The position numbers and the translations under genes are program-made. This document shows, one piece after another, positions 7,737 to 52,793 of a DNA stretch of 64,000 bases. The stretch is taken from assembly GCA_036397635.1 (NCBI GenBank), contig DASWIP010000031.1, forward strand, positions 6,536-70,535. Reading direction: 5' to 3'. Within the stretch, counting starts at the first letter, position 1, and every line of letters starts with the position of its first letter. The notes under the pieces were generated by a model. That model was not told the origin of the DNA and did not search any database. It saw nothing but the letters and a program-made list of their open reading frames with translations. This stretch comes from Actinomycetota bacterium (lineage in GTDB: Bacteria > Actinomycetota > AC-67).

Positions 7737-7782
7737 CGCCTGACGCAACAGTCGGCGATGCCAGCCGAGAAGGGGGAAGGGC

Positions 7783-8229: not shown

Positions 8230-8246
8230 CACTTACAGGGGGAGAC

Positions 8247-24961: not shown

Positions 24962-24992
24962 GGGCTCTCCTTTCGAAGGCACCGGCGGGCGT

Positions 24993-30193: not shown

Positions 30194-30226
30194 TTCGTAC
30201 GAATACCTTACAAATACCGTGAACGG
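30194..30226. promoter_or_regulatory. Conserved motif site C (TTCGTACGAATACCTTACAAATACC + CCGTGAACGG palindrome) in the 49 bp divergent P3/P4 intergenic region
   Basis: Same architecture and absolute orientation as sites A, B, D and E. It ends at the candidate GTG start of P4, so P4 is probably leaderless. Confidence 0.45.
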
Positions 30227-31850
30227 GACACAAGCCCTCATCTGGCGCGCGGCCGCAGCCGTGCTGTGCGGCGCTTTGCTCACGCCCGTGGGAGCGTCCG
30301 CCTCATCGCCGCTCACCCCCGACGACCAGGCCGCGGCTCTGCTGCTCGAGGACCGCATCGCGGACAACCTGTGGTACGGCCAGGTCTTCGAGGCGACCTA
30401 CCGCACGCCCGATCGCACGCCGGGTGATCTCGCGAGCGTGCACAACTTCGGTGACTCGGCCCTGTGGACCGGCACCTATCTCGCAGCGGAGGCGTTCCGG
30501 TACGCGACCGCGCGCACCAAGATCGCCACCGGCGAGGACGTGGCTTTCTGGGGCGAGCAGCAGGCGGAGGCGAAGGCCCGCATCGATCAGATAGTCGCCA
30601 AGTACCACCTGCTGATCAACATCTCGAAGAACTGGGATTACGAGCTCGAGCCCTCGCTGGACCCGCCGTCGTTCGGCGGCGGCGTGTTCCGCGGCGAGCC
30701 CGGGTACCTGATGCGCGCCTGCATCCCCACCGACGCCCCCTCGTGGGCGACCTGGGGCGAGCCGCGCGGCCCCCGGGTGTTCGGGCCCTTGGACTGGGAC
30801 GACGGCAACCAGTACTGGTGCGAGGACGCGACCAGCCGCGACGCCTACGCCGGCACGACCTTCGGTCTTCTGACCGCGTTCGACCTCGTCGGGCCCGACG
30901 ACGACGAGCTGCGCGCGCAGATCCGTGACGACGTCATCACGATGACGACCTTCGCCCTGAAGTACCTGTGGAACACGCCGCGGCCGCACGGCAACATCTC
31001 GCTGCCGCCGGAGGACCTCGAGGAGTACAGCCCCGTCGACGTCTGGGGGCACGACTTCGAGAATTTCATCTCGCCGTTGTTCGTCTACGTCCCGATGGCG
31101 AGGCTCAACATGACCCAGATCGCTCGCCACGTCGCCGATGAGGCGGGCACGCCCGAGCAGGCGGCCTTCTGGGAAGCGGTCTGGGCAGAGGAGCTGGCGT
31201 CGCAGGGCTCGTTGCTCGCGACGTCGATGGAGATCGATTCCTTCCAGCCCAACGACGGGTACTACAAGTTCAACCTGCATCACCTCACCGGCTACACCAC
31301 GATCAGGCTCGAGCCGGATCCGGCAGTGCGCGAGCTGCTTCGCCAGGCGTTCAGCGTCATGGACAACACGACTCGCGACGACGTCAATGCGCACTTCGAG
31401 ACCATCACCTACGCGCTGACCGGCGAGGCCGGCCGTCGTGACCTAGCGATCGAGCACCTCCGGGAGTGGCTCGACTATCGCGCGCGCATCGACCTGGGCG
31501 TGCCGACCAACAACAGCCCCGGCTGCGATGTCGAGTTCGAATGTGTGGCGCGGGACTCGCTCGAGCTGGTCGTGCGCGCGGCGGACGGATCGGAAGCCGC
31601 CGCGGTCACGCTCTTCCCCGGGACCGACGCCCGGCTGCGCGCGCGCCGCCCCCTGCCGGTGCCGCTCCGTCCCCCGACCGATTTCCTGTGGCAGCGGCCG
31701 CCGACGCAGCTCGAGGGCTTCGAAGGGGCGACGCGCCAGGCACCGGGCATCGACTACCTGCTGCCGTACTGGATGCTTCGGTACTACACGGACGTGGCGC
31801 CGCCGGGCTTGTCGCCGTTCCCGCCTTACCCTGCGCCGGCGCACGCATGA
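30219..31850 (+). CDS. Secreted protein, paralogue P4 of the same family (start uncertain: GTG 30219 or TTG 30180)
   Basis: The 5' part of track ORF 29898..31850 overlaps the divergent P3 and is not credible. From the GTG at 30219 the N-terminus MNGTQALIWRAAAAVLCGALLTPVGASA is a plausible signal peptide. Same motif set as P1-P3. Confidence 0.65.
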   Translation: MNGTQALIWRAAAAVLCGALLTPVGASASSPLTPDDQAAALLLEDRIADNLWYGQVFEATYRTPDRTPGDLASVHNFGDSALWTGTYLAAEAFRYATARTKIATGEDVAFWGEQQAEAKARIDQIVAKYHLLINISKNWDYELEPSLDPPSFGGGVFRGEPGYLMRACIPTDAPSWATWGEPRGPRVFGPLDWDDGNQYWCEDATSRDAYAGTTFGLLTAFDLVGPDDDELRAQIRDDVITMTTFALKYLWNTPRPHGNISLPPEDLEEYSPVDVWGHDFENFISPLFVYVPMARLNMTQIARHVADEAGTPEQAAFWEAVWAEELASQGSLLATSMEIDSFQPNDGYYKFNLHHLTGYTTIRLEPDPAVRELLRQAFSVMDNTTRDDVNAHFETITYALTGEAGRRDLAIEHLREWLDYRARIDLGVPTNNSPGCDVEFECVARDSLELVVRAADGSEAAAVTLFPGTDARLRARRPLPVPLRPPTDFLWQRPPTQLEGFEGATRQAPGIDYLLPYWMLRYYTDVAPPGLSPFPPYPAPAHA

Positions 31851-31884: not shown

Positions 31885-32934
31885 ATGAGCGACGCGGAGA
31901 CCCCCGCAGCCATGAACACCGAGCAGATCCCCTCGTCCCGCCCTTACGCGCTGTCCGCGCGCGGGGTAGGTGTGAGTTTCGGAGGCTTGCGCGCGCTCGA
32001 CGGCGTGGACCTCGACGTCGAGCCCGGCGCCATCATCGGTGTGATCGGGCCCAACGGCGCCGGCAAGACCACGCTGTTCGATGCGATCAGCGGGTTCATC
32101 CCATGCGAGGGGAGGATGTGGGTCAACGGCGTCCAGATCAGCGGCCTCCCACCGCACCGCCGCGCCGCGGCCGGGCTCGGCCGCTCGTTCCAGGACGCGC
32201 GCTTGTTCCACGCCATGACGGTGCTGGACACCCTGCGGGTCGCCTGCGAGCTGCACGTACGCGCTTCAGGCGTCGTTGGCATCGTGCTCGGACTGCCCGG
32301 CGCGCGCGGCGCCGAGCGCGCTGCGACCGCGCGCGCGCTGGAGCTTGTCGAGCTGTTCGGGCTCGGCGGATTCCGCGACAAGCTCATCCGTGAGCTGTCC
32401 ACGGGGACACGCCGGATCGTGGACCTCGCGTGCGTGCTCGCCCACGGCCCGTCGGTCGTGATGCTCGATGAGCCGTCGTCGGGGATCGCGCAGCGGGAGA
32501 CCGAAGCCCTGGGTCCGTTGCTGCGCCGGATCCGCGACCGCACCGGGTGCGCGATGCTGCTGATCGAGCACGACATGCCGTTGCTTCTGCACCTGGCCGA
32601 GCGCGTCTACGCGCTCGAGACCGGCCGCGTGATCGCATCGGGGGATCCCGAGGATGTCGTGCACGACCCCGAGGTGATCCGCTCGTACCTCGGTGCCGAC
32701 GCCGCCGCGATCAACCGGTCGGGCGCGCTGCCCGATGCCGCGCCGAAGCCTCGGGCTACCCGAGCCCGCAGGCCAGCGAAGGCCGCGCGGTCCACGACAT
32801 CGAACGCCGAAGCCACGACATCGAACGCCGAGGCCAAGATGAAGAAGGTGCGCGCACGCGCAGCCGCCACCAAGAAGGTCACCAAGAGAGCCACGAAGAA
32901 GGCGCCCACCACGAAGGGCAGCCCCAGCGTATGA
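31885..32934 (+). CDS. ABC transporter ATP-binding protein, LivG-like, with C-terminal Lys/Ala/Thr-rich histone-H1/HupB-like tail
   Basis: Walker A GPNGAGKTT, signature LSTGTRR, Walker B VVMLDEPSSG. The tail is ...KMKKVRARAAATKKVTKRATKKAPTTKG. A 21 bp tandem duplication (STTSNAEA x2) lies at 32789-32830. Confidence 0.85.
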   Translation: MSDAETPAAMNTEQIPSSRPYALSARGVGVSFGGLRALDGVDLDVEPGAIIGVIGPNGAGKTTLFDAISGFIPCEGRMWVNGVQISGLPPHRRAAAGLGRSFQDARLFHAMTVLDTLRVACELHVRASGVVGIVLGLPGARGAERAATARALELVELFGLGGFRDKLIRELSTGTRRIVDLACVLAHGPSVVMLDEPSSGIAQRETEALGPLLRRIRDRTGCAMLLIEHDMPLLLHLAERVYALETGRVIASGDPEDVVHDPEVIRSYLGADAAAINRSGALPDAAPKPRATRARRPAKAARSTTSNAEATTSNAEAKMKKVRARAAATKKVTKRATKKAPTTKGSPSV

Positions 32935-35102
32935 CCGCGACGCCGTCACGCGGCCGCGTGCTGCTCAGAGATCAACCCGCCGTGGGCGTGGTCGTCTCCG
33001 ACGGGCTGCACGTGACGCGCACCGCCGCCGACGGCACGTTCGCGCTTCGCGGGTTCGGGCCGTTCGCGATCGTGACGTGTCCGACCGGATGGACCACCGA
33101 CGGGTGGCACCTTCCCGCCGGCGACGACCTCAGGTTCGAGCTGCATCCCGATGAGCAGCCGGTCCCGTTCACTTTCGTCCAGGTCACCGACCTGCACGTG
33201 TCGCTGGGCGATCCCGCGTTCGGCGACGGTGCGGGCGACGCGACCTTCTACCAGGCCGACGGCGAGTGGCGCGAGCGGATCGTCACCACGCCGGCCGTCC
33301 TCGCATCGCTGCTGGAAGAGATCGCGCGCGAGCAGCCCGGCGCTTGGATCGTCGCCACCGGCGACCTGACGAACACCGGCGCGGAAGACGAGTACGAGGC
33401 GTACCGTGCAACGGTCGCGGCGAGCGGGCTGCACGTCGTGTCCATCCCAGGCAATCACGACCTCATGCCTCAGCGAGGCGATGACGAGGGAGGCGCCGAC
33501 ACGCTGTACGCGGCGGTGACGGCGCGGTACGAGGGCTACCTCGGGCCGCGGTATTTCTCGTTCGACCACGGAGGGCTGCATTTCATCGTGATCGACTGGT
33601 TCACGCACCTGTTGGGGGTCGATCGCCAGGCGCAGGAGACCTGGGTCGCCGCCGACCTCGCGGTGGCAGGCGACACCCCCGTGGTGATGCTGACCCACGA
33701 TCAGATGCGAGCCGAGTTCTACGCGGGGCTCGCGCGCGCGCCGGTCGCCAGCTTCTCCGGCCACTGGCACACGAGTCGCGTCGTCGTGCACGCGGGGACG
33801 ACCCACTACAACAGCGCCCCGGCCACGTTCGGCGGCTTGGACTACACGCCGGCGAGCTACCGGGTCGCCACGTGGGACGGCGCGAGGCTGCGGGTGCGGA
33901 CCGTCGCGCGCGGCGACGGCGCTTCGAGTGGCGCGACGTTCCGGAGCGAACCCGCGCCGGATGGCGTGTGCGCCTGGACGGCCCGCCTGGACGGCGGCGT
34001 GCACCTGGGGCCGCCGGTGGTGCACGGCGACGCGGTGCTTGCGACGTCGAAGCGGGAGGACGAACCCGGCGGGTCGATCGCGTGTTTCGATGCGGCCGAC
34101 GGCACGCTGCGGTGGCGGGTCGCCCTGAGCGCCGGGGTGAAGGCTGCACCGCTTGTCGTCGGCGACCTCGCGGTCGCAACCGCGGTCACCGGCGAGACCG
34201 TGTGCGTCGAGATCGGCACCGGGCGGGAGCGGTGGCGGACCGAGATAGCCGATCCGTTGCTGCTGTGGACCTACCTGCGCCCGGCCTCCGACGGCGCGCG
34301 GGTGTTCGTCGGGGACGTGGCGCGGTTCGTCGCGCTCGACCTCGTCGACGGCTCGGTCGCCTGGGCCCGCGAGGACCTCGGGAAGCGTGAGAACATGACC
34401 GCGCACGCCCACCCGGTCGTCGTCGACGGCACGCTGCTGGTGTCCTTCACCGCTCAGATCCCGGACCTGTGGGGCCTGGATCCGGCGACGGGCGCCACGC
34501 GCTGGCCCGCCGGCGTCGCCGCGCGCAGCGTCTACCAAGGGTCGTCGTCGGAGATCGTGATCCACCTTCCCCGGACGCCGGTCGCCGCGCTGGCCGCCGA
34601 TCCGGATGGAAAGGACGTCTACGTTGTTCGGCTCGGGTCTGTGCTCGAGCGCGTCCGCGCCGCCGACGGCGCGAGTGTCTGGACGGCGCAGTTCCTCGGC
34701 TGGTTCAACCCGGCGCGCCCGGCCGTGACCGAAGACGCGGTGCTGGCGTCCGCCGGGACGGGGACCGTGTTCTGCTTCGAGCGCAGGAGCGGCGCTCTTC
34801 GGTGGCGAACCGAGGTGGCGCGGGACGCGCCGGTCGCGCTGGGGCCGTACCGGGCCTCGGGGGCGGCGCTGCTCGCCGGGCCGCTGGTCGTCGGCGACGT
34901 GGCTGTGGTGGCCACGGGCGACGGGCGTCTGGTAGGTCTGGCCTGCGAGGACGGGCGGGAGGTCGGGATGATCGACGTTGGCGTTCCGGTGACGAGCCGC
35001 GCCGCGATCGCCGGCGAACATGTCGTGGTGGCGGCGCTGGACGGTACGGTACGGGCGCTGCCCTTGGCGGCCGTCGGGGTCGGCCGATTGTCGGCACCCT
35101 AG
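32931..35102 (+). CDS. Calcineurin-like metallophosphoesterase fused to PQQ/BamB-like beta-propeller repeats
   Basis: The ATG at 32931 overlaps the LivG stop (ATGA). Motifs GDLTNTG and GNHD mark the N-terminal metallophosphoesterase half. The C-terminal ~400 aa carry repeated ...GxLxA(L/F)DxxxGxxxW propeller motifs. Track ORF 32946..35840 on the opposite strand is an artefact. Confidence 0.75.
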   Translation: MTATPSRGRVLLRDQPAVGVVVSDGLHVTRTAADGTFALRGFGPFAIVTCPTGWTTDGWHLPAGDDLRFELHPDEQPVPFTFVQVTDLHVSLGDPAFGDGAGDATFYQADGEWRERIVTTPAVLASLLEEIAREQPGAWIVATGDLTNTGAEDEYEAYRATVAASGLHVVSIPGNHDLMPQRGDDEGGADTLYAAVTARYEGYLGPRYFSFDHGGLHFIVIDWFTHLLGVDRQAQETWVAADLAVAGDTPVVMLTHDQMRAEFYAGLARAPVASFSGHWHTSRVVVHAGTTHYNSAPATFGGLDYTPASYRVATWDGARLRVRTVARGDGASSGATFRSEPAPDGVCAWTARLDGGVHLGPPVVHGDAVLATSKREDEPGGSIACFDAADGTLRWRVALSAGVKAAPLVVGDLAVATAVTGETVCVEIGTGRERWRTEIADPLLLWTYLRPASDGARVFVGDVARFVALDLVDGSVAWAREDLGKRENMTAHAHPVVVDGTLLVSFTAQIPDLWGLDPATGATRWPAGVAARSVYQGSSSEIVIHLPRTPVAALAADPDGKDVYVVRLGSVLERVRAADGASVWTAQFLGWFNPARPAVTEDAVLASAGTGTVFCFERRSGALRWRTEVARDAPVALGPYRASGAALLAGPLVVGDVAVVATGDGRLVGLACEDGREVGMIDVGVPVTSRAAIAGEHVVVAALDGTVRALPLAAVGVGRLSAP

Positions 35103-35132
35103 TTTGTATGTATAGTTACCATATACGACGTC
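35103..35132. promoter_or_regulatory. Conserved motif site E (TTTGTATGTATAGTTACCATATACG + GACGTC) upstream of the substrate-binding-protein gene
   Basis: Same orientation and tandem ~11 bp unit structure as sites A-D. It sits 86-116 nt upstream of the ATG at 35218. Confidence 0.35.
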
Positions 35133-35217
35133 GAGAGCAGGAAGTCCGGTTCGCCCGAGCGCGGAGGCCTGAGGGTCGGCCGCGTTACGGTGGTCCGGCG
35201 TCGGGAGGCCAGAGGGC

Positions 35218-36816
35218 ATGAATGACCGACTGGATCGAGTCTTCAAGCATCCCATATTCAACCACCCGCAGACGCTCCGGGTCCTGACGATCGCCATCTC
35301 CGTCACCCTCGTCAGCGGCGTGGCGATGATCGGTCCCGTCGGCGGTCGCGGCGATGATCCCCGCGACAACGAAGGGGCGTTCGTCGTCGACGACGACGTT
35401 ATCCCGGGGACGACGGCCAGCCTGTCGCCCGGCGCGACCCCATCGCTGAGCGGATCCGGGACGCCGGTTACACCGGGGCAAGGATCGACACCCGGCTTCA
35501 TCATCCCAGGTGGCGGGAAGCCATCGATCCCGCCCTCGAAGATCCCGAGCTTCGGACTTCGCACCCAAGGCATCACCGCCGACGCGGTGAAGATCGGCAT
35601 CTCGTACAACGTCGCTTCGTGCGGCGACGCGGCGGTGCTCGAAGCGATGCTGGGGCCCACGACGGCGGGTGATCTGGAGAAGTCGATCAACACGTTCGCG
35701 CGCCACATCAACGACACGGGCGGGCTCGGCGGGAAGAAGTACCAGCCGATCATCGTGGACGATGGCGGTGCCGGCTGCCCGGCGAAGAACATCTCGGCAG
35801 CGATCAAGATGGCAGAAGAGGAAAAGGTCTTCATGGCCATCCCGGGGCTGCACGTCGAATCCGACTACATCATGAAGCACTACAAGATCCCCGTGTTCGG
35901 GGGCCGCGAGGATCCCGACTCGCTCGGCCGGTACGGCCCCAACGGCCTGCAGATCCTCGAACCTCTCGAGCCGACATTCGAGGCGTGGGCGAGCTTCGGC
36001 CGGTACTACCTCAACGGACAGGATAAGAAGCCGTGCCTGATCCGGATCGAAAGCGGCGCGGCCGGCGACTTCGACACCGCGGAGCGGATCCTCAAGCAGA
36101 AGATGTCGAAGTACGGGCTGACGTTCGCCGACCGGATCTGGGTGTTCAAAGACGACGTTTCGACCGCGCAGCAACAGTCCAATTCGATCGCGGCTGCGGC
36201 CAAGGGCAAAGGTTGCGATCAGGTGTACTACCTCGCAGGCAACCCGATCGGCCTGATCTTCTTCACCGACGCTGCCACCCAGAACGGGTGGTTCCCGACC
36301 TGGACCTTCACCAGCATGGTGATCCTCACCGACGACGACGCGATCGGGAACCTGATGGATCCCGTGCAGTGGGAGAACGCCATCGGCCTTTCCTACCGCG
36401 TGCCGGCCGGGCAGCATCGCGATGAGGGGAATTGCAAGCGGATCTACGAGCGCTACAACGGCAACGACGGGCAGAGCGATTCCGCCGCGGTGAAGCTGGC
36501 GTGCGCGACGATCCTGCCCACCGCGGAGATGATGCGCCGTGCGATCCAACTCACCGGCACGCTGACCGCCGATACGCTGTTGCTCGGCGCCGACGCGATC
36601 GACAACGACTTCTTCTTCGACGCGACCGTCCCCCTCGACTGGCGGTACCCGAACATCAACGGTCCGTTCAAGACCCGCGGTTTCAGCCACTACACCGTTG
36701 TGGACTGGAGCTCGTCGCAGAAGCGCTACACGTTCCCGAAGTACCCCTGTTACTACAAGGTCTTCGAGGCCCAGAACGGCGGCTGCGAGAACCTCACGAA
36801 GTACTACAAGAAGTAG
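35218..36816 (+). CDS. ABC transporter substrate-binding protein (type-1 periplasmic binding fold, LivJ/amide-binding family), membrane-anchored
   Basis: GGGAGG SD, N-terminal TM anchor, Pro/Gly/Ser/Thr-rich linker, then a PBP1 domain. Confidence 0.8.
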   Translation: MNDRLDRVFKHPIFNHPQTLRVLTIAISVTLVSGVAMIGPVGGRGDDPRDNEGAFVVDDDVIPGTTASLSPGATPSLSGSGTPVTPGQGSTPGFIIPGGGKPSIPPSKIPSFGLRTQGITADAVKIGISYNVASCGDAAVLEAMLGPTTAGDLEKSINTFARHINDTGGLGGKKYQPIIVDDGGAGCPAKNISAAIKMAEEEKVFMAIPGLHVESDYIMKHYKIPVFGGREDPDSLGRYGPNGLQILEPLEPTFEAWASFGRYYLNGQDKKPCLIRIESGAAGDFDTAERILKQKMSKYGLTFADRIWVFKDDVSTAQQQSNSIAAAAKGKGCDQVYYLAGNPIGLIFFTDAATQNGWFPTWTFTSMVILTDDDAIGNLMDPVQWENAIGLSYRVPAGQHRDEGNCKRIYERYNGNDGQSDSAAVKLACATILPTAEMMRRAIQLTGTLTADTLLLGADAIDNDFFFDATVPLDWRYPNINGPFKTRGFSHYTVVDWSSSQKRYTFPKYPCYYKVFEAQNGGCENLTKYYKK

Positions 36817-36819
36817 CCG

Positions 36820-38082
36820 ATGAGCGAGCGTCTCGCCCTCGACGGAGGAACCCCGGTCCGCCGCCAGCCCCTGTCGATGGGCAAGGGTGTCGCGTTCCTC
36901 GGCGACGAGGAGCGGGCGGCGGTGATGGCGGTGCTGGAGAGCCGCAGCCTGTTCCGCTACTACGGGCCCGACCTGCAGGAGACCGTCGCCGGGTTCGAAC
37001 GAGACGCAGGGGCGTATCTGGGTGCCGCGCACGCCGTCGCGACGTCCAGCGGGACGGCGGCGCTTCGTGTCGCGCTTGCCGCGCTGGGGATCGGGTGCGG
37101 TGACGAGGTCATCGTCCCGGCGTTCACCTTCATCGCGACGGTCAATGCGGTCGTGCTCGCCGGTGCCGTCCCGGTTTTCGCCGAGGTCGACGAGACGCTG
37201 GGCCTCGACGCTGCGGCAGTCGAGGCGGGCGTGACCGAACGGACCGTGGCGGTCATCCCCGTCCATCTCGAGAACGTCGCCTGCGACATGGACCCCCTGC
37301 TGAAGATCGCCGAGCAGCGCTCACTCGCCGTCCTCGAAGACACGGCCCAGTCGATGGGCGCGACGTATCACGGGCGCGCGCTCGGCACGCTCGGCGACAT
37401 CGGCGCGTTCTCGCTCCAGCTCGAGAAGAACATCACCGCGGGCGAGGGCGGCCTCATCGTCACCGACGACGAGGCGCTGTGGATCCGGGCTGCTCGGTAT
37501 CAGGATCAGGGCGGTCAGTTCGTGACCGGCCACGGCGGCAGCCGCGGTGCGGAACTCGACGAGCCGTTCGTCGGGGAGAATCTTCGCATGACCGAGATCG
37601 CCGGCGCGATCGCCGGCGCGCAGCTCACGAAGCTTCCGTCGATCCTCGGTGCGATGCGCCGGAACAGAGCGGCCATCGAGGCTGCGGTCGGTGTGATCGA
37701 TGGGATGCAGGCGCGCCGCAGTCCCGATCCCGACGGCGACGGCGCGTCGAGCATCACGTGGTTCCTCCCCGACGCCGCGCTCGCCGCCCGGTTCGCCGAC
37801 GCCTTGCGTGCCGAGGGGATCCCATCGGCGCAGATCTACGATGGCCGGCCCGTGTATGCGACGCCATCCATCCTCGGCCGGCGGACCGCGAGCGGGAAGG
37901 GTGGTCCCTGGAACTGCGCCGAGCATCCCACCGACGTCGTGTACCGGCTCGGGATGTGCCCGCGAACCGAGGCCCTCGTCGCGCGCTCGGCATCCGTCGG
38001 GATCGGCGCGCGCTGGAACGAAGACGATGCTCGTGACGTCGCGGCGGCGGTGCAGAAGGTCGCGTCGGTGCTCCTCGGATGA
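36820..38082 (+). CDS. DegT/DnrJ/EryC1/StrS-family PLP-dependent aminotransferase
   Basis: AHAVATSSGTAALRVALAALGIGCGDEVIVPAFTFIATVNAV and the family-typical length and pattern through the gene. Confidence 0.9.
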   Translation: MSERLALDGGTPVRRQPLSMGKGVAFLGDEERAAVMAVLESRSLFRYYGPDLQETVAGFERDAGAYLGAAHAVATSSGTAALRVALAALGIGCGDEVIVPAFTFIATVNAVVLAGAVPVFAEVDETLGLDAAAVEAGVTERTVAVIPVHLENVACDMDPLLKIAEQRSLAVLEDTAQSMGATYHGRALGTLGDIGAFSLQLEKNITAGEGGLIVTDDEALWIRAARYQDQGGQFVTGHGGSRGAELDEPFVGENLRMTEIAGAIAGAQLTKLPSILGAMRRNRAAIEAAVGVIDGMQARRSPDPDGDGASSITWFLPDAALAARFADALRAEGIPSAQIYDGRPVYATPSILGRRTASGKGGPWNCAEHPTDVVYRLGMCPRTEALVARSASVGIGARWNEDDARDVAAAVQKVASVLLG

Positions 38083-39053
38083 GCCTGCGCGTCGCCGTCA
38101 TCGGCTGCGGCGCCGCCGCCCGGCGGCTGCATCTCCCCGCGATGCGCGACGCCGGCGCCGACGTGGTGGCGTTCGCCAGCGGCTCGCGCGCGTCCGCGTC
38201 CGCGGCGGCGGCGGACTGGGGCGGCGGCATCGTTTACGACGACTGGCGTACGGCCATCGAAGCTGCCGGCGTCGATGCCGTCGATATCTGTACGCCGAAC
38301 CATCTGCACGCCGAGATCGCCATCGCGGCCGCGCGGGCCGGCAAGCACGTGCTCGTCGAGAAGCCGATCGCGCCGACGCTGGCAGAGGCCGACGCGATGA
38401 TCGACGCTGCGGCCGACGCGGGCGTGGTGCTGATGGTCGCGCACAGCGCGCGCTACGCGCCGCCGGTGCGCGCGATCCTCGCGGCGGTGCGCGCGGGCGC
38501 GATCGGAACGGTGCGATCCGCGCGCGCCGTTCTGCGCAACGAGGGCCCCGAGGTGTGGTCGCCGGACTCGACGTGGTTCACGGACCCGGCGCGCAGCGGG
38601 GGCGGAGCGCTGCTCGACCTGGGTGTGCACGTCGCAGATCTGCTGCGCGCGGTGTTCGAGCGCGATGCGCTCGAGGTGACCGCGATGTGCCGGCCGGAGG
38701 CGCCTGCAGAGCTCGAGGCGCATGCGGTCATCCGCTTCGAGGATGACGCCTTGGCGACGATGCAGGTTGGTTGGGATTCCGGTAGCGGACCCGACGTCGT
38801 GGTCGAGGTCGCCGGTGAGGCGGGCGTGATCCGGTTCGACGGCGCGCGCGCCCCCGTGGTGCGAACCGCCGATCGCGAGAAGGACGTACCGCCCCAGGAG
38901 CCCGATGATGCCGTCGCTGCGTTCGCGCGCGCCGTCGCCGGACGGGAAGCCCCCGCGGTCACCGGGGAAGACGGGCGCGCGGCGCTTTCCATCGTGATGG
39001 CTGCCTACTCGTCGGCGCGCACCTGCACGACGACGAAGGTCGACCGGAGGTAG
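38079..39053 (+). CDS. Gfo/Idh/MocA-family NAD(P)-dependent oxidoreductase
   Basis: LRVAVIGCGAAARRLHLPA Rossmann start and EKP motif VLVEKPIA. The ATG overlaps the aminotransferase stop (ATGA). Confidence 0.9.
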   Translation: MSLRVAVIGCGAAARRLHLPAMRDAGADVVAFASGSRASASAAAADWGGGIVYDDWRTAIEAAGVDAVDICTPNHLHAEIAIAAARAGKHVLVEKPIAPTLAEADAMIDAAADAGVVLMVAHSARYAPPVRAILAAVRAGAIGTVRSARAVLRNEGPEVWSPDSTWFTDPARSGGGALLDLGVHVADLLRAVFERDALEVTAMCRPEAPAELEAHAVIRFEDDALATMQVGWDSGSGPDVVVEVAGEAGVIRFDGARAPVVRTADREKDVPPQEPDDAVAAFARAVAGREAPAVTGEDGRAALSIVMAAYSSARTCTTTKVDRR

Positions 39054-39057
39054 GTCC

Positions 39058-41052
39058 GTGGACATCGTCGTGCTCGGACTCGTCATCGGGATGGCCAACG
39101 CGCTGCTCGCGGTGGGTCTGGTGCTCATCCACAAGGCTAACCGCGTGATCAACCTGGCCCACGGTGAACTGGGCGCCTTCACGGTCGCGATGATGCTGTC
39201 GCTGACCCGCGTCGCGCACCTCAACTACTGGCTGGCGCTGCTCTGCAGCCTCGCCGGAACGGTTTTGCTGACCGCGATGATCGAGCGCACGGTTCTTCGC
39301 CGGCTGTTCCGCAGCCCGCGATTGATCATGCTCATCGCCACGATCGGCGTCGCCCAACTGGTCATCGTGCTGCGGCTCGTGCTGCCGAAGCCGAGGACGG
39401 CGCTTGGTGATTCGATCCTCGCCGGCGGCGGATCGCAGTTCCCGGTGCCCTTCCAGATGGACCCGATCCCCTTCGGCCGGATCGTGCTCGGGCCGGCGCA
39501 CTTCATGGCGCTGGTCGCCGGACCCCTGCTCGCGATCGGGCTCCTGCTGTTCCTGAAGCGGTCCTCCTATGGGATCGCGCTTCGCGCTGCCGCCGAGAAC
39601 GCGCCGCGCGCGCAGCTGCTCGGTATCCCGGTCCGCCGGGTGTCGACCCTGGCCTGGGTACTGGCAGGCCTGCTCTCCGGCGTCGCAGCGGTGCTGCTCG
39701 CGCCGATCATCGGCTTCTCGGCGACCGAGGCGGTGGGGTTGCCGCTGCTGATGCGCGGCTTGGCCGCCGCGACCGTCGCGCGCATGGAGTCCGTCGGGAT
39801 CGCGTTCGTGGGCGGCCTCGCGCTCGGTGTCGCGGATCAGGTCGTGTTCTTCACCACGGGGCGGAGCGACCTGACGGATCTGGTTCTGTTCATCGTGATC
39901 CTGCTCGCGCTGCTGCCCAGGCGCGCGCTTCAGCGTCGCACGGTCGCGGCGGAGGAGTCGTCGTGGGACGTCGCCGACCCGGTACGGCCGTTGCCGATCG
40001 AGCTCGCCTCGCATCCGCGGTGGCGCGCGCTCAGCCGTACGGCGCTTGCCCTCGGCGTGCTTGCGATCGGCGCCGGGCCGTTCCTGCTGCAGCCGTCGGC
40101 GACGTTCTTCCTCTCGACCGTGTTCCTGGTCGGCGCGGTCGCCGTGTCGATGACGGTGCTGACCGGCTGGGCCGGGCAGATGTCGATCGGGCAATGGGCC
40201 CTGGCCGGTGCCGGCGGCGTGATCGGATCCAAGCTCGTCGGCACGATGGGATGGCCCTTCTGGCCGTCGCTCCTCGTCGCGGCGCTGCTTGGCATGGTGC
40301 TCGCCGTCGCGATCGGGTTGCCGGCGCTGCGGCTCGAGGGCACATCGCTCGCGGTCGTCACCCTCGGGTTCGCGGTCGTTTCTGCATCCTGGCTGTTCCA
40401 ACAAGATTGGTTCGGCGGCGACGGATTCATGCCCAAGCCCGACTATCTCTCGACGCGGTGGTACTACGCCGTCGCGATCGTGTTCCTGGCGCTGACGATG
40501 CTCGCCGCGCGCGCGCTGCAGCGAAGCAGGTTCGGGCGGAACACGGTCGCGGTTCGCGACAACCCGCGGCAGGCAGCATCGTTCGGCGTGGCGATCGTGC
40601 GCACCAAGCTCACGGCGTTCGCGGTATCGGGTGCGATCGCGGCGGCGGCCGGGTTCCTGTGGGCCGCGGGGATCGGGATCGCCGACGCGTCGGTCTTCCC
40701 GCCGGTCCGGTCGCTCTCCATCGTCGCCGCGGTCGTCATCGGCGGGCTCGGCTCGGTCCCCGGGGCGGTGCTCGGCGCGTTCTATCTGCAGGCGATCCCG
40801 TACTTCGGCGCGTCGATCTCGCCGTACATCGGGTTGCTCACGACCGGGTTCGGTCTGTTGATCCTCCTGATCTTCTTCCCCGGGGGGCTCGCCCGGCTGG
40901 TTCAGACGGGACGCGATCTGCTCGCTCGTGCCGTCACCGGGATCGATCCGCGACCACAGGGTCGCGTGGCCGATGAGGATGCGCTCAGCGCTGCCAGCGA
41001 AGGGCTGGTCCCCGATGGCGTCGCGCCCGAGCCGGTGGGGACGAGGGTGTGA
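39058..41052 (+). CDS. ABC transporter permease, fused LivH-like + LivM-like domains
   Basis: About 20 hydrophobic helices. The N-terminal half is LivH-like and the C-terminal half LivM-like. Confidence 0.85.
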   Translation: MDIVVLGLVIGMANALLAVGLVLIHKANRVINLAHGELGAFTVAMMLSLTRVAHLNYWLALLCSLAGTVLLTAMIERTVLRRLFRSPRLIMLIATIGVAQLVIVLRLVLPKPRTALGDSILAGGGSQFPVPFQMDPIPFGRIVLGPAHFMALVAGPLLAIGLLLFLKRSSYGIALRAAAENAPRAQLLGIPVRRVSTLAWVLAGLLSGVAAVLLAPIIGFSATEAVGLPLLMRGLAAATVARMESVGIAFVGGLALGVADQVVFFTTGRSDLTDLVLFIVILLALLPRRALQRRTVAAEESSWDVADPVRPLPIELASHPRWRALSRTALALGVLAIGAGPFLLQPSATFFLSTVFLVGAVAVSMTVLTGWAGQMSIGQWALAGAGGVIGSKLVGTMGWPFWPSLLVAALLGMVLAVAIGLPALRLEGTSLAVVTLGFAVVSASWLFQQDWFGGDGFMPKPDYLSTRWYYAVAIVFLALTMLAARALQRSRFGRNTVAVRDNPRQAASFGVAIVRTKLTAFAVSGAIAAAAGFLWAAGIGIADASVFPPVRSLSIVAAVVIGGLGSVPGAVLGAFYLQAIPYFGASISPYIGLLTTGFGLLILLIFFPGGLARLVQTGRDLLARAVTGIDPRPQGRVADEDALSAASEGLVPDGVAPEPVGTRV

Positions 41053-43091
41053 GCTTGCGGCCCCCGCTCTCGCCGCGGACGTGGATCCCGCGGCTGCGCG
41101 CGTATCTCAACGGCGAGGCGCTGTTCCCGATCCTGGTGCTGTTCGCGCTCAACGCGGTCGACGAGTTCGATAGCCGGACCTTCGATGTGCTGGGGCCCGA
41201 GATCGCCGAGGACTTCGGCGTCGGGGTCGGCGCCTTCGGATCGATCGCGGTGCTGGTGCTGCTGCTCGTGCCCCTGGTCGCGGTGCCGGTCTCGTACCTG
41301 GCCGACCGGTGGCGCCGGATGCCGCTGGCGATCGGCGGTGCGGCGGCGTGGGGCGCCTTCTCGCTGGCGACGGGCCTCGCGCCGATCCTGCCGCTGCTGA
41401 TCCTGTCCCGGGTGGGGTCGGGCTTCGGGAAGGTCGTCAACCAGCCGGTGCACGGGGCGCTCATCTCGGAGTTCTACTCGCCGCGCACGCGCGCGAAAGC
41501 GTTCGGGATCCACTCGCTGGCCAACATCGGCGGCGCGGCGGTCGCGGCCGTGCTCGGCGGCGTCATCGCGCAGGTGTTCGGCTGGCGGACCGCGTTCTTC
41601 GTGCTGACGATCCCGACGGTCGCGGCGATCCTGATCGCGTTGCGGCTGCGCGAGCCGCCCCGCGGCCGCTTCGAGGTCACCGAAACGCCGGCCGCGCCCC
41701 CGTTGCGCCAGACGATCCGCCGGCTGTGGGCCATCCGCTCGCTGCGTTACCAGTGGATCGGACTCGCCTACACGACCGGATCGACGCTGGGCATCGGCGT
41801 GCTCGTGCCGTTCTTCCTGGAGGAGGACTTCGGGGTTGAGCCGGGCTTGCGGGGCGTGCTGATCGGCGTCGGGACGGCGATCTCGGCTGTCGCCGTGCTC
41901 ATCGGCACGGCGGTCGCGCAGAATCGGATCAACGAGCGGCCCAGCGAAGGACTGCGGCTGCTGTGCTTCAGCGGCATCGCTGCCGGCGTGGCGCTGTTCG
42001 GGATGGCGGTCGCACCGTCGCTGGCGCTCATCGTGCTGTTCCTGTGGATCATCATGGCCATCTTCGCGTTCGTCGCACCAGGCCTGCTGTCGATCACGGC
42101 GATCGTGTCGCCCCCGGAGATCCGATCGTCGGCGTTCGCGCTCGGCGGGTTCATCGCCCTCGCGGGCTCGGGGTTCTCGCTGATCGGCTTCGCGATCGGC
42201 GACCAGGTGAGCATGCGGCTTGCGATCGGCATCATGGCCCCGGTGTTCCTGCGCGGTGTCGGCTACTTCTTCAAGGCCGCCGGGTATCTCGACGATGACG
42301 TCGAGAGACTCGATCCCGCGCATGCGCAGAAGGCGGGCGGCGAGAGCGGCCCTGTGCTGCTCGAGACCAAGGGGCTCATGGTGTCCTTCGACGGCGTCCG
42401 CGTCCTGTTCGGCGTGAACCTCGAGATCCGGCGAGGCGAGGTCGTCGCGCTGCTCGGCACGAACGGTGCCGGGAAGTCCACCACGCTGAACGCGATCAGC
42501 GGCATCGTCGAGCCGGAGGCCGGCAACGTGTGGTTCGAGGGTGAGGCGATCGTCGGCGAGTCGCCCGAGCAGACGGTCAAGAGGGGCATCGTGCAGGTGC
42601 CGGGCGGGCGCGGCGTCTTCCCCGGGCTGACGGTCGAGGAGAACCTGCGCATGGGCGCGTTCCTCATCCGGCGCGACCGCGCGCTGGTTCAGCGGCGCCT
42701 GGACGAGGTGTTCGGTCTGTTCCCCAGACTCGCGGAGCGGCGCGGGCAGCGCGCCGGGTCGCTGTCCGGCGGCGAGCGCCAGATGCTGACGCTCGCCCAG
42801 TCGTTCCTGCTGCGGCCGACGCTGCTGCTGATCGACGAGCTTTCCCTCGGCCTCGCCCCGACCGTGGTCGAGGAGCTGCTCGGCGCCGTGCGCACGATGA
42901 ACCAGGAGGGGACGACGATCGTCATCGTGGAGCAGTCGGTTAACATCGCGCTCAACCTGGCCGACCGCGCCTACTTCATGGAGAAGGGCGAGGTTCGGTT
43001 CTCGGGGCCGACCGCCGAGCTGCTGCAGCGGCAGGACCTGCTGCGCTCGGTCTTCCTCGAGGGAGCAGGCAGGTCGGTCGCGCGCACGTGA
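41049..43091 (+). CDS. Fusion protein: N-terminal MFS-transporter-like domain (~430 aa, ~12 TM) + C-terminal LivF-like ABC ATPase
   Basis: MFS motif A LADRWRRMP. C-terminal Walker A GTNGAGKST, signature LSGGERQ, Walker B LLLIDELSLG. The start overlaps the permease stop. Confidence 0.8.
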   Translation: MSLRPPLSPRTWIPRLRAYLNGEALFPILVLFALNAVDEFDSRTFDVLGPEIAEDFGVGVGAFGSIAVLVLLLVPLVAVPVSYLADRWRRMPLAIGGAAAWGAFSLATGLAPILPLLILSRVGSGFGKVVNQPVHGALISEFYSPRTRAKAFGIHSLANIGGAAVAAVLGGVIAQVFGWRTAFFVLTIPTVAAILIALRLREPPRGRFEVTETPAAPPLRQTIRRLWAIRSLRYQWIGLAYTTGSTLGIGVLVPFFLEEDFGVEPGLRGVLIGVGTAISAVAVLIGTAVAQNRINERPSEGLRLLCFSGIAAGVALFGMAVAPSLALIVLFLWIIMAIFAFVAPGLLSITAIVSPPEIRSSAFALGGFIALAGSGFSLIGFAIGDQVSMRLAIGIMAPVFLRGVGYFFKAAGYLDDDVERLDPAHAQKAGGESGPVLLETKGLMVSFDGVRVLFGVNLEIRRGEVVALLGTNGAGKSTTLNAISGIVEPEAGNVWFEGEAIVGESPEQTVKRGIVQVPGGRGVFPGLTVEENLRMGAFLIRRDRALVQRRLDEVFGLFPRLAERRGQRAGSLSGGERQMLTLAQSFLLRPTLLLIDELSLGLAPTVVEELLGAVRTMNQEGTTIVIVEQSVNIALNLADRAYFMEKGEVRFSGPTAELLQRQDLLRSVFLEGAGRSVART

Positions 43092-43840
43092 GCGCGCGCG
43101 CGAACGCGGGCGAGCTGATCGCCCGCGGCGACGCGGTGCTCCTCGACGTGGACGGGGTCATCTGCCTGGAAGACGAGCCGATCGCCGGCGCCGCGGAGGC
43201 CGTCGCGTCGCTTCGCTCGCGCGTGCCGCTGCTGGTTGCGGTGACCAACGATTCGCGGCGCACGCGCGTCCGGCAGCACGAGCGTCTCGCGCGCGTAGGC
43301 CTGACAGGCGCGCGGGTGGCGACGGCGATCGACGCGCTGGCCGCTGAGCTGCTCGCGCAACGGCACTGTGTCGTCGCGGCGTGCGGCACGCCGTCGTTGA
43401 CCGCTGATCTGAGACGTCTGGGCGTCGACGTCGACCCCACGCGCGCGACGGCGCTCGCGATCGGGGCTGCCGCGAACCCGTCCGCGGTCGCCGACGGACG
43501 CGCGATGCTCGCGCGCGGGCTGCCGGCGTTCGCCGCGAACGCCGACCTTTCGATCCCGACGCTGGAGGGGCGCGTGCCCGACACCGGCGCGGTGGTTGCT
43601 GCCTTGGGCTGTCTGCCAACCTTCTGCGGGAAGCCGAACGAGCCCATGAGCCGGATCGTGCATGCGCTGATCGGCGACGCCGCCCGCGTCGTGGTGATCG
43701 GCGACGGGATCGACACGGATCTCGCGTGGGCGCGCGCGGAAGGCTGGGCGTCGATCTACATCGGCGAGGGCGAGGGCGGGGACGTGGATGCCGACGCAGT
43801 CGTGCCTTCGATCGCGGCGCTTGCTACAGCAACGCCCTGA
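43088..43840 (+). CDS. HAD-superfamily hydrolase (subfamily IIA, NagD-like sugar-phosphatase type)
   Basis: Motif I LLDVDGVI and motif IV VVVIGDGIDTDL. Confidence 0.8.
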   Translation: MSARANAGELIARGDAVLLDVDGVICLEDEPIAGAAEAVASLRSRVPLLVAVTNDSRRTRVRQHERLARVGLTGARVATAIDALAAELLAQRHCVVAACGTPSLTADLRRLGVDVDPTRATALAIGAAANPSAVADGRAMLARGLPAFAANADLSIPTLEGRVPDTGAVVAALGCLPTFCGKPNEPMSRIVHALIGDAARVVVIGDGIDTDLAWARAEGWASIYIGEGEGGDVDADAVVPSIAALATATP

Positions 43841-44885
43841 GATCGTCGCTCGCGGAGGCGACCTCGCCCCCCCGGATGCATCCCGCCACTTTCAGCTCGG
43901 CGTCCCAGATCGCGAGGTCGGCGCGCGCGCCGGGCGCCAGCGTCCCGCGATCGGCGGCCTCAAGCAGCGCGGCCGGCGCGGCAGAGGCCATGCGCGCGGC
44001 CTCCTCGATGCCCAGCCCGTGCACGCGCGCGATCCGGCCGACGCCGTCGGCGAGGGTCGCGGCCGAGCCCGCGAGCACGCCGGCCGGCGGGCGACGATCG
44101 GGGGCGGCGTCGGGGTCGGGGGCGGCGTCGCTGACCAGGAAGACGCGCGGCCCCGCGACGCGCAGCGCCAGCGCGAGGATCGCGTCGTGCAGGTGCACCC
44201 CATCGGCGATCAGGGCGACGCGCCCGCGCTCGTCCAGCAGGTACGCGAGTGCGGCACCGGGCGCGCGCTGATGCACGGGCGTCATCGCGTTGAACAGGTG
44301 CGTCGCGACGTCGATGCCGTCCTCGATCGCCTCGATCGCCTGCTCGTAGGTGGCGCCGGTGTGCCCGGCCGCCACGACGATGCCTCGCGCGATCGCCGCG
44401 GCTGCGTAAGCGCGCGCGCCGGGCACCTCCGGTGCGAGGGTGATCATGCGCACGCCCGGCAGTTCGAGCAGCGCGCGCGTCTGCGGGTCGTCGCCGCGGC
44501 GCAGGTGCTCGGGCGGATGCGCGCCCGGGTGCTCGGGGGACAGGACGGGTCCTTCCAGGTGCAGGCCGAGGAGGCCGGTGTCCGAGCCGTCGCGGGCGGC
44601 GGCGACTGCAGCGGCGAGCGCCGCGACGCGCGCGGGCTCGGATGACGGCACCGCGCAGAGCCACGAGGTCACCCCCGCGGCGGCGAGGCGCGCGTCCAGA
44701 GCCGGCAGGCACGCGGGGTTCCCGAGCGGGAACAGCTCGCCCAGCCCGTTGACCTGCAGGTCGATGAGCCCCGGCGTGATCGACCATCCTTCGGGGAGGT
44801 CCACGACCGGCCCGGCCGGCGGCGCGCTTAGGACGGGCCCGTCGATGCAGACGAGCCGGTTGGCGGCGCGCAGGCTCAGGCGCAT
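43824..44885 (-). CDS. nagA: N-acetylglucosamine-6-phosphate deacetylase
   Basis: GLIDLQVNG, HLEGP, AAGHTGAT and HLFNAM motifs. The start was moved to the ATG at 44885 (MRLSLRAANRLVCIDG); the track's N-terminal extension to 45374 is unsupported. Confidence 0.85.
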   Translation of the reverse strand: MRLSLRAANRLVCIDGPVLSAPPAGPVVDLPEGWSITPGLIDLQVNGLGELFPLGNPACLPALDARLAAAGVTSWLCAVPSSEPARVAALAAAVAAARDGSDTGLLGLHLEGPVLSPEHPGAHPPEHLRRGDDPQTRALLELPGVRMITLAPEVPGARAYAAAAIARGIVVAAGHTGATYEQAIEAIEDGIDVATHLFNAMTPVHQRAPGAALAYLLDERGRVALIADGVHLHDAILALALRVAGPRVFLVSDAAPDPDAAPDRRPPAGVLAGSAATLADGVGRIARVHGLGIEEAARMASAAPAALLEAADRGTLAPGARADLAIWDAELKVAGCIRGGEVASASDDLRALL

Positions 44886-45556: not shown

Positions 45557-45587
45557 TTTGTACGAGAATCTTACATAATTGCCGGCC
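45557..45587. promoter_or_regulatory. Conserved motif site B (TTTGTACGAGAATCTTACATAATTGCC + GCCGGC) filling the 31 bp between the divergent nagB and GH84 start codons
   Basis: 20/26 identity to site A. Contains the -10-like TACATAAT 8 nt before the GH84 ATG, so the transcript is probably leaderless. Confidence 0.45.
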
Positions 45588-48743: not shown

Positions 48744-48865
48744 GCGCGCGCTACCGCGGCGGCCGTTTCCCCCCGGGTCGATGATGCCCCCCTGCCCCGA
48801 TCGTCGATGAGTGAGCGCATCGTAGCGGGGGCGCGCGCGTCCGGAGGTGTGGGTGGGCGCGTCGC

Positions 48866-52789: not shown

Positions 52790-52793
52790 GGAG

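Follow-up and report, generated by a model that had tools for sequence, protein, structure and literature searches.

The stretch analysed here (the window, 64,000 nucleotides from an Actinomycetota bacterium of the AC-67 lineage) carries, at 31885-43840, a 12-kb run of eight genes in which the parts of a Liv-type ABC importer stand among a DegT-family aminotransferase, a Gfo/Idh/MocA oxidoreductase, a metallophosphoesterase-propeller protein and a HAD phosphatase. We give about an even chance to the reading that this run is the uptake arm of a ROK-repressed regulon of ~29 kb (23.3-52.3 kb), which would scavenge a glycoconjugate of beta-linked N-acetylglucosamine (GlcNAc) with, probably, a second amino sugar or amino-polyol. 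The reading is based on gene partners of GH84, ROK and NagA-like type that persist in related loci, on an operator common to the promoters, on the intact motifs of the GH84 enzyme and on the top family matches of three other genes, which are NagA, NagB and NagC. The palindrome common to their promoters is our strongest evidence, because of which the transporter, the DegT-Gfo pair, the GH84 gene, the nag-like genes and a family of secreted proteins without annotation (UNKfam) probably constitute one regulon.

Gene content and a common operator

All eight genes proposed in the first-pass annotation of this DNA are present on the + strand at the positions it gave, and Pfam and NCBIfam agree with it on their domains:

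31885-32934, +: LivG-like ABC ATPase with a C-terminal Lys/Ala-rich tail of ~70 residues (Pfam ABC_tran and BCA_ABC_TP_C)
32931-35102, +: metallophosphoesterase fused to a BamB/PQQ-like beta-propeller (Pfam Metallophos and PQQ_2)
35218-36816, +: substrate-binding protein (SBP), LivJ/Peripla_BP_6 fold, membrane-anchored (weak Pfam Peripla_BP_6 match, 38.6 bits against a cutoff of 31.7, 1.3e-9)
36820-38082, +: DegT/DnrJ/EryC1-family aminotransferase dependent on pyridoxal phosphate (PLP) (Pfam DegT_DnrJ_EryC1, 262.8 bits)
38079-39053, +: Gfo/Idh/MocA NAD(P) sugar oxidoreductase (Pfam GFO_IDH_MocA N- and C-terminal domains)
39058-41052, +: fused LivH+LivM permease (LivHM), 664 aa (two Pfam BPD_transp_2 halves)
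41049-43091, +: MFS domain fused to a LivF-like ABC ATPase (Pfam MFS_1 at residues 32-376, ABC_tran at 455-597)
43088-43840, +: HAD-IIA (NagD/pNPPase-type) phosphatase (Pfam and NCBIfam HAD-IIA)

The G+C content at third codon positions of the eight reading frames (0.87-0.94) is typical of genuine genes in this region of ~70% G+C. Catalytic and nucleotide-binding motifs are intact throughout the run, and a DegT protein of identical sequence is encoded on six metagenome contigs, each from one sample; the run is therefore a genuine and recurrent genome segment. Four junctions are 4-nt ATGA/GTGA overlaps (LivG/phosphoesterase and DegT/Gfo, where ATGA coupling had already been noted, LivHM/MFS-LivF and MFS-LivF/HAD), and the SBP/DegT and Gfo/LivHM junctions are gaps of 3-4 nt. 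The earlier description of tight overlaps throughout the run fits all of these junctions but not the one before the SBP gene, which lies 115 nt from the phosphoesterase gene; the spacer contains a promoter-like site (35088-35116) overlapping an AT-rich operator-like palindrome. Because of this gap and the two elements within it, the run probably comprises two transcription units, the first formed by g0 (a UNKfam gene), LivG and the phosphoesterase and the second by SBP, DegT, Gfo, LivHM, MFS-LivF and HAD.

Operator-like palindromes of this kind, listed without strand, occur at five places in the window:

26648-26668: palindrome TTTGTACGGAAATCTTACGAA upstream of UNKfam B (one mismatch to TTTGTA-N9-TRCAAA, both strands)
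30194-30214: palindrome TTCGTACGAATACCTTACAAA between the divergent genes of UNKfam C and g0 (pattern match)
35103-35123: degenerate site TTTGTATGTATAGTTACCATA upstream of the SBP gene (weight matrix, 38.7 bits)
45557-45577: palindrome TTTGTACGAGAATCTTACATA between the starts of the NagB-like and GH84 genes (pattern match)
50905-50925: degenerate site upstream of the genes for an alpha/beta-fold hydrolase (abH), a ceramidase-like protein (CerLike) and two ROK proteins, ROK2 and ROK1 (weight matrix, 23.8 bits, second best of the window)

Searching for TTTGTA-N9-TRCAAA with at most one mismatch retrieves three sites in the window (26648, 30194 and 45557), against 0.17 expected by chance. The sites at 35103 and 50905 were added by a weight matrix made from 11 sites; since the matrix was partly built from the 35103 site itself, the 38.7 bits of this site have to be read with that in mind. 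Nothing outside 26-51 kb scores above 6 bits, and all five sites (26.6-50.9 kb) lie in promoter regions of genes of the system. The SBP and DegT/Gfo genes have the operator motif in common. A looser pattern gave 17 matches over the fetched loci, compared to a mean of 6.35 in mononucleotide shuffles, and 16 of the 17 adjoin genes of the system (the SBP gene, ROK1/DegT, LivG/ROK2, GH84/UNKfam, NagA/ROK1, GH84/abH). Among these loci the motif is found in L007, where it again lies upstream of the SBP gene, and in L011-L015, L020, L023, L032, L042, L049 and L054. ROK2, a protein of the helix-turn-helix (HTH) ROK type, is the candidate repressor that would act at the palindromes.

The limits of 31885-43840 given earlier for the cluster have thus to be replaced, as the run is part of a probably co-regulated set at ~23.3-52.3 kb. 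The rest of the window contains regulators, a subtilase and proteins without assigned function, its scanned reading frames gave no genes of inositol catabolism, and an Rfam scan of the window returned no riboswitch and no other RNA family. ARAGORN called a 101-nt tRNA-Ala(CGC) at 8284-8384, within the open reading frame of the subtilase (7758-10241); the length and location of this call make a false positive probable. Also outside the set are a protein combining a cyclic-nucleotide-binding domain with collagen triple-helix repeats (12721-13992) and, immediately past the regulon, a tannase-like DUF6351 protein (52461-55016, 713 bits).

The importer and its binding protein

By its predicted parts the importer belongs to the HAAT family (TC 3.A.1.4; LivJ/K-HMGF, UrtABCDE), with which it has in common separate LivG- and LivF-type ATPases, a BCA_ABC_TP_C tail on the LivG-like one, two BPD_transp_2 membrane domains of LivH/LivM (UrtB/UrtC) type and a binding protein of Peripla_BP_6 fold. 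The top NCBIfam models are LivG for the first ATPase (207 bits) and LivF for the second (196.7 bits), both below the equivalog cutoffs, while the UrtB, UrtC, LivH and LivM models rank ahead of MglC and AraH for the permease. Both ATPases retain their Walker A, Walker B and signature motifs. The C-terminus of the LivG-like protein (32700-32931) is a Lys/Ala/Thr-rich tail of ~70 residues resembling histone H1, with a duplicated TTSNAEA motif; its orthologues mostly align only to about residue 280 and the sequence of the tail is not conserved.

Two predicted fusions set this importer apart from the reference HAAT systems, in which they are absent: LivH and LivM are joined in one protein of 664 aa, and LivF bears an N-terminal MFS domain of ~430 residues. 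The second of these is a conserved feature, being retained in 118 of the best 120 orthologue clusters. Walker A and B motifs are present in all 118 of the fused clusters, the signature motif in 117 and an MFS motif-A-like sequence in 89. Among solved structures the MFS half comes closest to 6e8j, a transporter of the major facilitator family, and to Spinster homolog 1, with drug-type MFS proteins ranking next. The literature searched contained no account of such a fusion. The MFS domain could provide a second translocation path, export a by-product or act as a structural partner of the ABC complex.

The binding protein differs further from its HAAT counterparts. It has a single transmembrane-like segment at residues 20-38 and a disordered linker at 33-99, and an AlphaFold2 model built from 26 sequences (pLDDT 81) places a membrane anchor at its N-terminus. 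Its best 50 Foldseek matches in the PDB are proteins of the LivJ/UrtA/AmiC kind and ligand-binding domains of class-C receptors (mGluR, calcium-sensing); all the bacterial proteins among them are of Liv/Urt/AmiC type, with TM scores (on the target) of 0.65-0.77 for the better ones at only 11-16% identity, and none of the 50 is a sugar- or inositol-binding protein. The second-best match is the fatty-acid-binding protein 4n03.

By sequence the profile of the SBP family reaches solved Liv proteins at E = 5e-4 only. In that alignment the segment TPTATGP of the leucine-binding protein 4n0q faces the invariant G229-R230-x-D232-P233 of the SBP family (written Gly-Gly-Arg-x-Asp-Pro). We take the 4n0q segment to correspond by homology to TPAATAP of LivJ, which binds the amino-acid backbone; the alignment with LivJ itself does not span this region. 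LivJ holds the alpha-amino and alpha-carboxylate groups of its ligand through Ser79 and the Ala100-Thr102 region. Of 1.84 billion representative proteins searched, only 19 reach E <= 1e-30, with a drop in full-length score from 596 bits to 118 or less. At E <= 0.001 the SBP has 144 relatives, and the 120 of these that were listed are 43-89% identical and come from metagenomes or from metagenome-assembled genomes (MAGs) of Actinomycetota/Acidimicrobiales. Judged by these scores, the family is small and sharply isolated. Because of the 11-16% identity, the apparent replacement of the backbone motif and this isolation, the SBP appears to be Liv-type by fold, yet no recognisable binder of Leu, Ile or Val; the one feature that would mark an amino-acid transporter has apparently been lost, as far as a low-confidence alignment can suggest. 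The importer also differs from reference HAAT systems in its conserved genomic partners, which are GlcNAc-type catabolic genes.

Conserved partners and catabolic genes

A scan of one genome per species gave 30 SBP loci, all in MAGs (Acidimicrobiales, Mycobacteriales, Frankiaceae, Nitriliruptorales and others). Counts refer to the 23 loci of at least 12 kb, whose SBP is 41-72% identical to that of the window, with the window proteins mapped by tblastn and DegT counted within 10 kb. LivG, the MFS half and the LivF half are each present in 21 of the 23 and LivHM in 19. Near the SBP gene we found GH84 in 16, ROK2 in 14, and ROK1 and UNKfam in 13 each; DegT, CerLike and abH each occur in 10, a NagA-like gene in ~9 and Gfo in 7 (two other Gfo clusters account for 6 and 4), as does an ADP-ribosylglycohydrolase-family protein (ADPRGH, 7/23), followed by a PfkB kinase (3/23), the phosphoesterase-propeller protein (2/23) and HAD (0/23).

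Gene order is strongly shuffled between loci. The four transporter genes are contiguous in Mycobacteriales-type loci (LivG, LivHM, MFS-LivF, SBP), Frankiaceae-type loci have the order SBP, LivHM, MFS-LivF, and in many Acidimicrobiales-type loci the SBP gene is convergent with the other three. The importer split among enzymes, on which the earlier annotation had laid weight, is thus real in the window but a lineage-local arrangement: the interleaved order recurs only in the closest relative, L007, whose contig ends inside DegT after the SBP gene. As to the recurrence of DegT, Gfo and SBP together, DegT is near the SBP gene in 10 of the 23 loci and the three genes are contiguous and in the same order in L015, though the association is facultative.

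The L007 locus (JACQXY010000054.1, SBP 72% identical) bears the label 'Acidobacteria bacterium', alone among relatives that are otherwise Actinomycetota; this MAG may be mislabelled or wrongly binned. In Mycobacteriales-/Frankiales-type loci (L020, L022, L026-L030, L033, L035, L036) the gene after that of the SBP encodes a conserved lipoprotein-like protein of ~350 residues without a Pfam match. Four of them (L020, L022, L026, L033) carry a different Gfo-family gene upstream of the transporter, beyond UNKfam and, in L020 and L022, GH84; this gene adjoins one for a PQ-loop/SemiSWEET-like membrane protein in L020, L022 and L026 (not called in L033). DegT occurs in L035 and L036 but in none of L020-L033.

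Downstream of the eight-gene run, the regulon continues with the following genes:

43824-44885, -: NagA-like amidohydrolase (TIGR00221 nagA, 172.7 bits against a cutoff of 225.65)
44876-45589, -: NagB-like deaminase/isomerase-family protein, start maybe at 45556 (Pfam Glucosamine_iso)
45579-46886, +: GH84 beta-N-acetylglucosaminidase, cytoplasmic (Pfam NAGidase, 221.6 bits)
46855-47586, -: ROK1, short ROK protein of 243 aa, candidate sugar kinase (Pfam ROK)
47583-48869, -: ROK2, HTH-ROK regulator (NagC/Mlc-like), candidate repressor of the regulon (Pfam ROK and MarR/HTH)
48866-49996, -: CerLike, neutral-ceramidase-N-terminal-like protein, candidate amidase (52% identical to the member in L023)
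49999-50904, -: abH, alpha/beta-fold hydrolase (Pfam Abhydrolase_1)
50952-52277, -: ADPRGH, ADP-ribosylglycohydrolase-family protein (Pfam ADP_ribosyl_GH, 9.7e-34)

The GH84 protein has the YAPKDD motif and the catalytic Asp pair (FDD, 119-120), and neither a signal nor a transmembrane segment was found in it. NCBIfam nagB models match the NagB-like protein with 71-76 bits (cutoffs 237-326), NagC is the top model for ROK2 (138 bits, below cutoff), and ROK1 has weak matches to glucokinase and polyphosphate-glucokinase models. The abH protein matches models of S33 aminopeptidase type. ADPRGH clusters are present in 10 related loci besides the window, often directly after the SBP gene, the 7 of 23 given above being the result at the thresholds of the tblastn mapping; the gene lies immediately 3' of the SBP gene in several relatives (L011-L014, L024), a position held by the PfkB kinase gene in L008 and L021.

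DegT contains the SLQLEK motif with the PLP-binding Lys (from residue 198) and is thus an aminotransferase and not a dehydratase. Its top PDB match is KdnA (5k8b; 2.5e-65, 225 bits), the Kdo8N transaminase, whose sugar substrate is not nucleotide-linked. More distant are inosose aminotransferases (148-157 bits), WbpE (~113 bits) and NtdA (98 bits, 6e-27). The second match is Fic25 (186 bits), whose crystal structure shows it in contact with a carrier protein (PMC11726168). Gfo has the expected Rossmann motif GCGAAA (residue 9), EKP (94) and the D-x3-H motif DLGVH (180), and its top PDB matches are 1,5-anhydrofructose reductase, the 'putative dehydrogenase' 6a3f, presumably levoglucosan dehydrogenase, and DgpA; the top NCBIfam model is inositol 2-dehydrogenase IolG. 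A PDB sequence search with CerLike gave nothing usable.

We also collected 37 metagenome loci of at least 7 kb centred on DegT (44-74% identical). Gfo lies immediately downstream of DegT in 16 of them, and CerLike is adjacent or nearby in 21. Two compact operons look catabolic: L094 with the order MFS, ROK, DegT, NagA-like and L093 with ROK, CerLike, DegT, Gfo, NagA, Gfo, NagB. Because of these, and since the KdnA substrate is not nucleotide-linked, a catabolic role of DegT seems plausible. In many DegT-centred loci the neighbours, judged from their sequences without a domain scan, look unrelated to sugar pathways; similarities are to SPFH proteins, a carboxylase, a PPK2 kinase and a two-component system. 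We infer that DegT-Gfo, often with CerLike, may be a mobile catabolic module which would take an amino group off an amino sugar or amino-polyol by transamination, reduce the resulting ketone and join different uptake systems. In the translational coupling of a Gfo gene to one for a DegT-fold aminotransferase with its catalytic Lys, the module resembles the pairs that make 3-amino sugars (WbpB/WbpE, GnnA/GnnB, NtdC/NtdA). It differs from these in its apparently catabolic, transport-linked context, in the greater distance of its DegT from WbpE and NtdA than from KdnA, and in its third conserved partner, which is ceramidase-like and not an acetyltransferase or a phosphatase.

Two enzymes of the run stand outside this conserved set. 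The phosphoesterase-propeller protein has intact D-x-H, GD, GNHD and GH-x-H motifs and no evident signal peptide, its PDB sequence matches span only the propeller, and among the loci examined its orthologues occur in L007, L031 and L044 only. HAD has the DVDGV motif and matches pNPPase- and NagD-type proteins in the PDB; no orthologue was found in any of the 23 SBP loci or the 37 DegT-centred loci. Both are lineage-specific add-ons and no conserved parts of the system.

Upstream of the run lie four UNKfam genes and a GH172 gene:

23273-24982, -: UNKfam A, secreted (47% identical to g0; N-terminal signal-like segment; no Pfam match)
24993-26627, -: UNKfam B, secreted (54% identical to g0; signal peptide MRPRLPIVLAITGLLAASAPARA; operator just upstream)
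26715-28694, -: GH172 (DUF2961) glycosidase-like protein with C-terminal SCP2 (Pfam DUF2961 3.5e-73, SCP2 1.3e-4)
28385-30169, -: UNKfam C, secreted (41% identical to g0; signal peptide)
30219-31850, +: UNKfam g0, secreted (start uncertain: the reading frame opens at 29898, public call at 30180)

UNKfam proteins have ~550 residues; the four paralogues of the window are 41-54% identical and all have signal peptides. A search gave 349 homologues, of which the best 120 listed are all without a Pfam domain and named 'hypothetical protein'. Invariant positions include four Cys and many Arg, Asp, His and Tyr residues. The AlphaFold2 model of g0 (pLDDT 87) is rich in helices and weakly similar to (alpha/alpha)6 barrels. 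Comparison of this model with the PDB gave nothing significant, the best being barrels of GH9, GH116 and epimerases (E >= 0.014, TM 0.3-0.36), and the family profile found nothing usable among PDB sequences. GH172 domains were also recorded in L001, and the GH172 gene is not conserved across the related loci. The SCP2 match on the GH172 protein (22.6 bits) is just over the cutoff and would put a lipid-binding domain on a glycosidase, an unusual combination.

Interpretation and alternative explanations

In the favoured reading, secreted UNKfam proteins would possibly free the ligand from a polymer, after which the membrane-anchored, divergent Liv-type SBP would capture it and the HAAT-type importer formed by LivHM, LivG and MFS-LivF would take it up. 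The cytoplasmic GH84 enzyme would then cleave off GlcNAc, which ROK1 may phosphorylate and the NagA-like and NagB-like proteins convert towards fructose-6-phosphate. For the other amino group, CerLike may act as N-deacylase, DegT may turn the amine into a ketone and Gfo may reduce the keto sugar; such a transaminase route would serve an amine that NagB cannot remove. The phosphoesterase-propeller protein and HAD might strip phosphate ester or diester groups, and the ROK repressor, at the palindromes, would govern the whole set.

This arrangement resembles the nag regulons (NagC/NagA/NagB/NagK, with uptake by NgcEFG, DasABC or a PTS) in its HTH regulator of the ROK family and in the AT-rich palindromic operator, ~21-23 bp long, that recurs at several of its promoters. 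Its enzymes likewise include a beta-N-acetylglucosaminidase, NagA-like and NagB-like proteins and a kinase-like ROK protein. It differs in that uptake is of HAAT type and not by a CUT1 ABC importer or a PTS, the glycosidase is of GH84 and not GH3 or GH20, the nag-like proteins all score below curated cutoffs, and DegT, Gfo, CerLike and ADPRGH are extra. As predicted from these parts, the regulon would work like a nag regulon, yet it is neither a moc-type nor an Ntd-type locus. The literature searched, on GH84 with ROK and ABC proteins in actinobacteria, on HAAT importers with MFS and MFS-LivF fusions and on the natural substrates of bacterial GH84 enzymes, held no account of a system of this kind.

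Several explanations compete for the same genes. The importer might be a conventional one for amino acids, urea or amides that stands next to sugar enzymes incidentally, through operon shuffling in a carbohydrate-rich region; highly shuffled gene order, the occurrence of most DegT-Gfo pairs without the transporter and the best matches of all transporter parts to Liv and Urt models would agree with this. However, GH84, ROK and UNKfam partners persist over several orders despite the shuffling, the operator fronts the SBP, LivG, GH84, ROK1, DegT and NagA genes alike and the SBP family is isolated and apparently without the motif, so we consider chance neighbourhood improbable. The first-pass annotation had likewise suggested a role other than amino-acid transport, and the GH84, ROK and NagA-like partners across several orders bear it out, as does the apparent absence of a TPAATAP-type motif, again from a low-confidence alignment. 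An intermediate case would be a GlcNAc conjugate bearing amino acids (for instance a glyco-amino acid or muropeptide), of which the SBP would read the amino-acid or peptide part while GH84 acts as NagZ and CerLike or abH as amidase or peptidase. The HAAT type of the SBP and transporter would suit such a ligand, the GH84, ROK kinase-like, NagA-like and NagB-like proteins look like a set for recycling the cell wall, abH is matched by models of the S33 aminopeptidase type, and the importer includes an MFS domain, the type of protein to which AmpG, the muropeptide permease of Gram-negative bacteria, belongs. Against this stand the SBP, in which the amino-acid backbone motif seems not to be conserved, DegT and Gfo, which would be left without an obvious role, and the window and recurrent clusters, in which no MurQ-like (SIS), AnmK, LdcA-type or peptide-processing gene was seen; we regard a ligand of this kind as unlikely.

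The salvage of aminocyclitols or amino sugars had been proposed earlier on the model of rhizopine loci, and it is the amino-sugar half of that proposal, represented by GH84, ROK and the NagA-like and NagB-like genes, which our results sustain. For a cyclitol of inosamine or rhizopine type, with Gfo and DegT interconverting inositol, inosose and inosamine, one may cite IolG as the top NCBIfam model of Gfo (135.8 bits, far from the cutoff of 355), the matches of DegT to glutamine:(2-deoxy-)scyllo-inosose aminotransferases (148-157 bits) and the PfkB kinase of 3 of the 23 loci. DegT is nearer to KdnA, however, the partners that are conserved belong to the GlcNAc type, neither IolB/C/D/E nor MocC/D/E-type genes turned up in the window reading frames scanned with Pfam or in the recurrent clusters of related loci, and the 50 best structural matches of the SBP hold no sugar- or inositol-binding protein. 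The resemblance to the moc cluster of Sinorhizobium is thus reduced to a type-1 binding protein beside a Gfo/Idh/MocA oxidoreductase: the SBP is Liv-type whereas MocB is a ribose-binding-type (CUT2) protein, MocC/D/E/F and iol genes were not found here, and to our knowledge the moc cluster has no DegT. We therefore hold aminocyclitol salvage to be very unlikely. An equally small probability attaches to an N-acylated amino-sugar glycolipid (for example lipid-A-like, with 2,3-diamino-glucose) that would lose its acyl and phosphate groups and then its 3-amino group by reversed chemistry of GnnA/GnnB, which are a Gfo-family and DegT-family pair. The hints of lipid, namely the ceramidase-like protein, Spinster homolog 1 as second-best MFS match, SCP2 on GH172, the alpha/beta hydrolase and 4n03 among the structural matches of the SBP, are joined by the phosphoesterase and phosphatase of the operon, but all are marginal (a sub-threshold Pfam match, 49 bits for the MFS match, 22.6 bits for SCP2), GH172, the phosphoesterase and HAD are not conserved, and GH84 enzymes require a 2-acetamido group, not a long acyl chain. 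Finally, Gfo, DegT and HAD belong to the families of NtdC, NtdA and NtdB and all lie in one operon here, which would allow the making or breakdown of a 3-amino-3-deoxy sugar phosphate as in the kanosamine pathway (NtdABC/KabABC; PMC8788734). Since HAD, of subfamily IIA and NagD/pNPPase type, is absent from all 23 SBP and all 37 DegT-centred loci and NtdA is distant (98 bits against 225 for KdnA), a strict NtdABC analogy was set aside, and chemistry of this type is hardly to be expected.

Some observations weigh against the favoured reading of amino-sugar uptake itself. The ligands of the structural neighbours of the SBP are Leu/Ile/Val, urea, amides, aromatic acids and fatty acids, we know of no HAAT-family importer that carries a sugar, and the loss of the backbone motif is read with low confidence from an alignment of ~14% identity. 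The NagA, NagB, NagC and ROK-kinase assignments all remain under the curated NCBIfam cutoffs, the CerLike assignment goes back to a sub-threshold match of the L023 member to Pfam PF04734 (3.9e-7), and neither the NagB-like gene nor HAD is conserved among the related loci. The link of the enzymes to the transporter is facultative, as the SBP gene is found in only 3 of the 37 DegT-centred loci and most DegT-Gfo-CerLike modules lack this transporter. Homologous clusters without DegT/Gfo, which had been named earlier as an argument against a joint function, are in part what we see, since 13 of the 23 SBP loci have no DegT within 10 kb. Distant UNKfam members (~50% identity) lie in unrelated contexts on long contigs, so that the family as a whole is not bound to the transporter, and all the related loci come from MAGs or metagenomes.

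Going beyond the favoured reading, we would put forward, tentatively and at well under even confidence, that uncultured soil Actinomycetota have recruited a HAAT importer, its LivF permanently fused to a functional MFS domain, for an amino-sugar glycoconjugate. It would be the entry to a so far undescribed ROK-controlled pathway with a cytoplasmic GH84 enzyme, which would give O-GlcNAcase-like enzymes of bacteria a nutritional function, a NagB-independent deamination by CerLike, DegT and Gfo, and UNKfam as an extracellular depolymerase. If true, amino-sugar conjugates would join amino acids, urea, amides and organic acids in the substrate range of HAAT importers and a conserved fusion of MFS and ABC ATPase would be documented. 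Cytoplasmic bacterial GH84 enzymes would gain a physiological context, and a transaminase/oxidoreductase route for amino-sugar catabolism would be added together with a new regulator-operator pair. The hosts are abundant uncultured actinobacteria of soil and groundwater, in which automatic annotation calls these genes branched-chain amino-acid transport.

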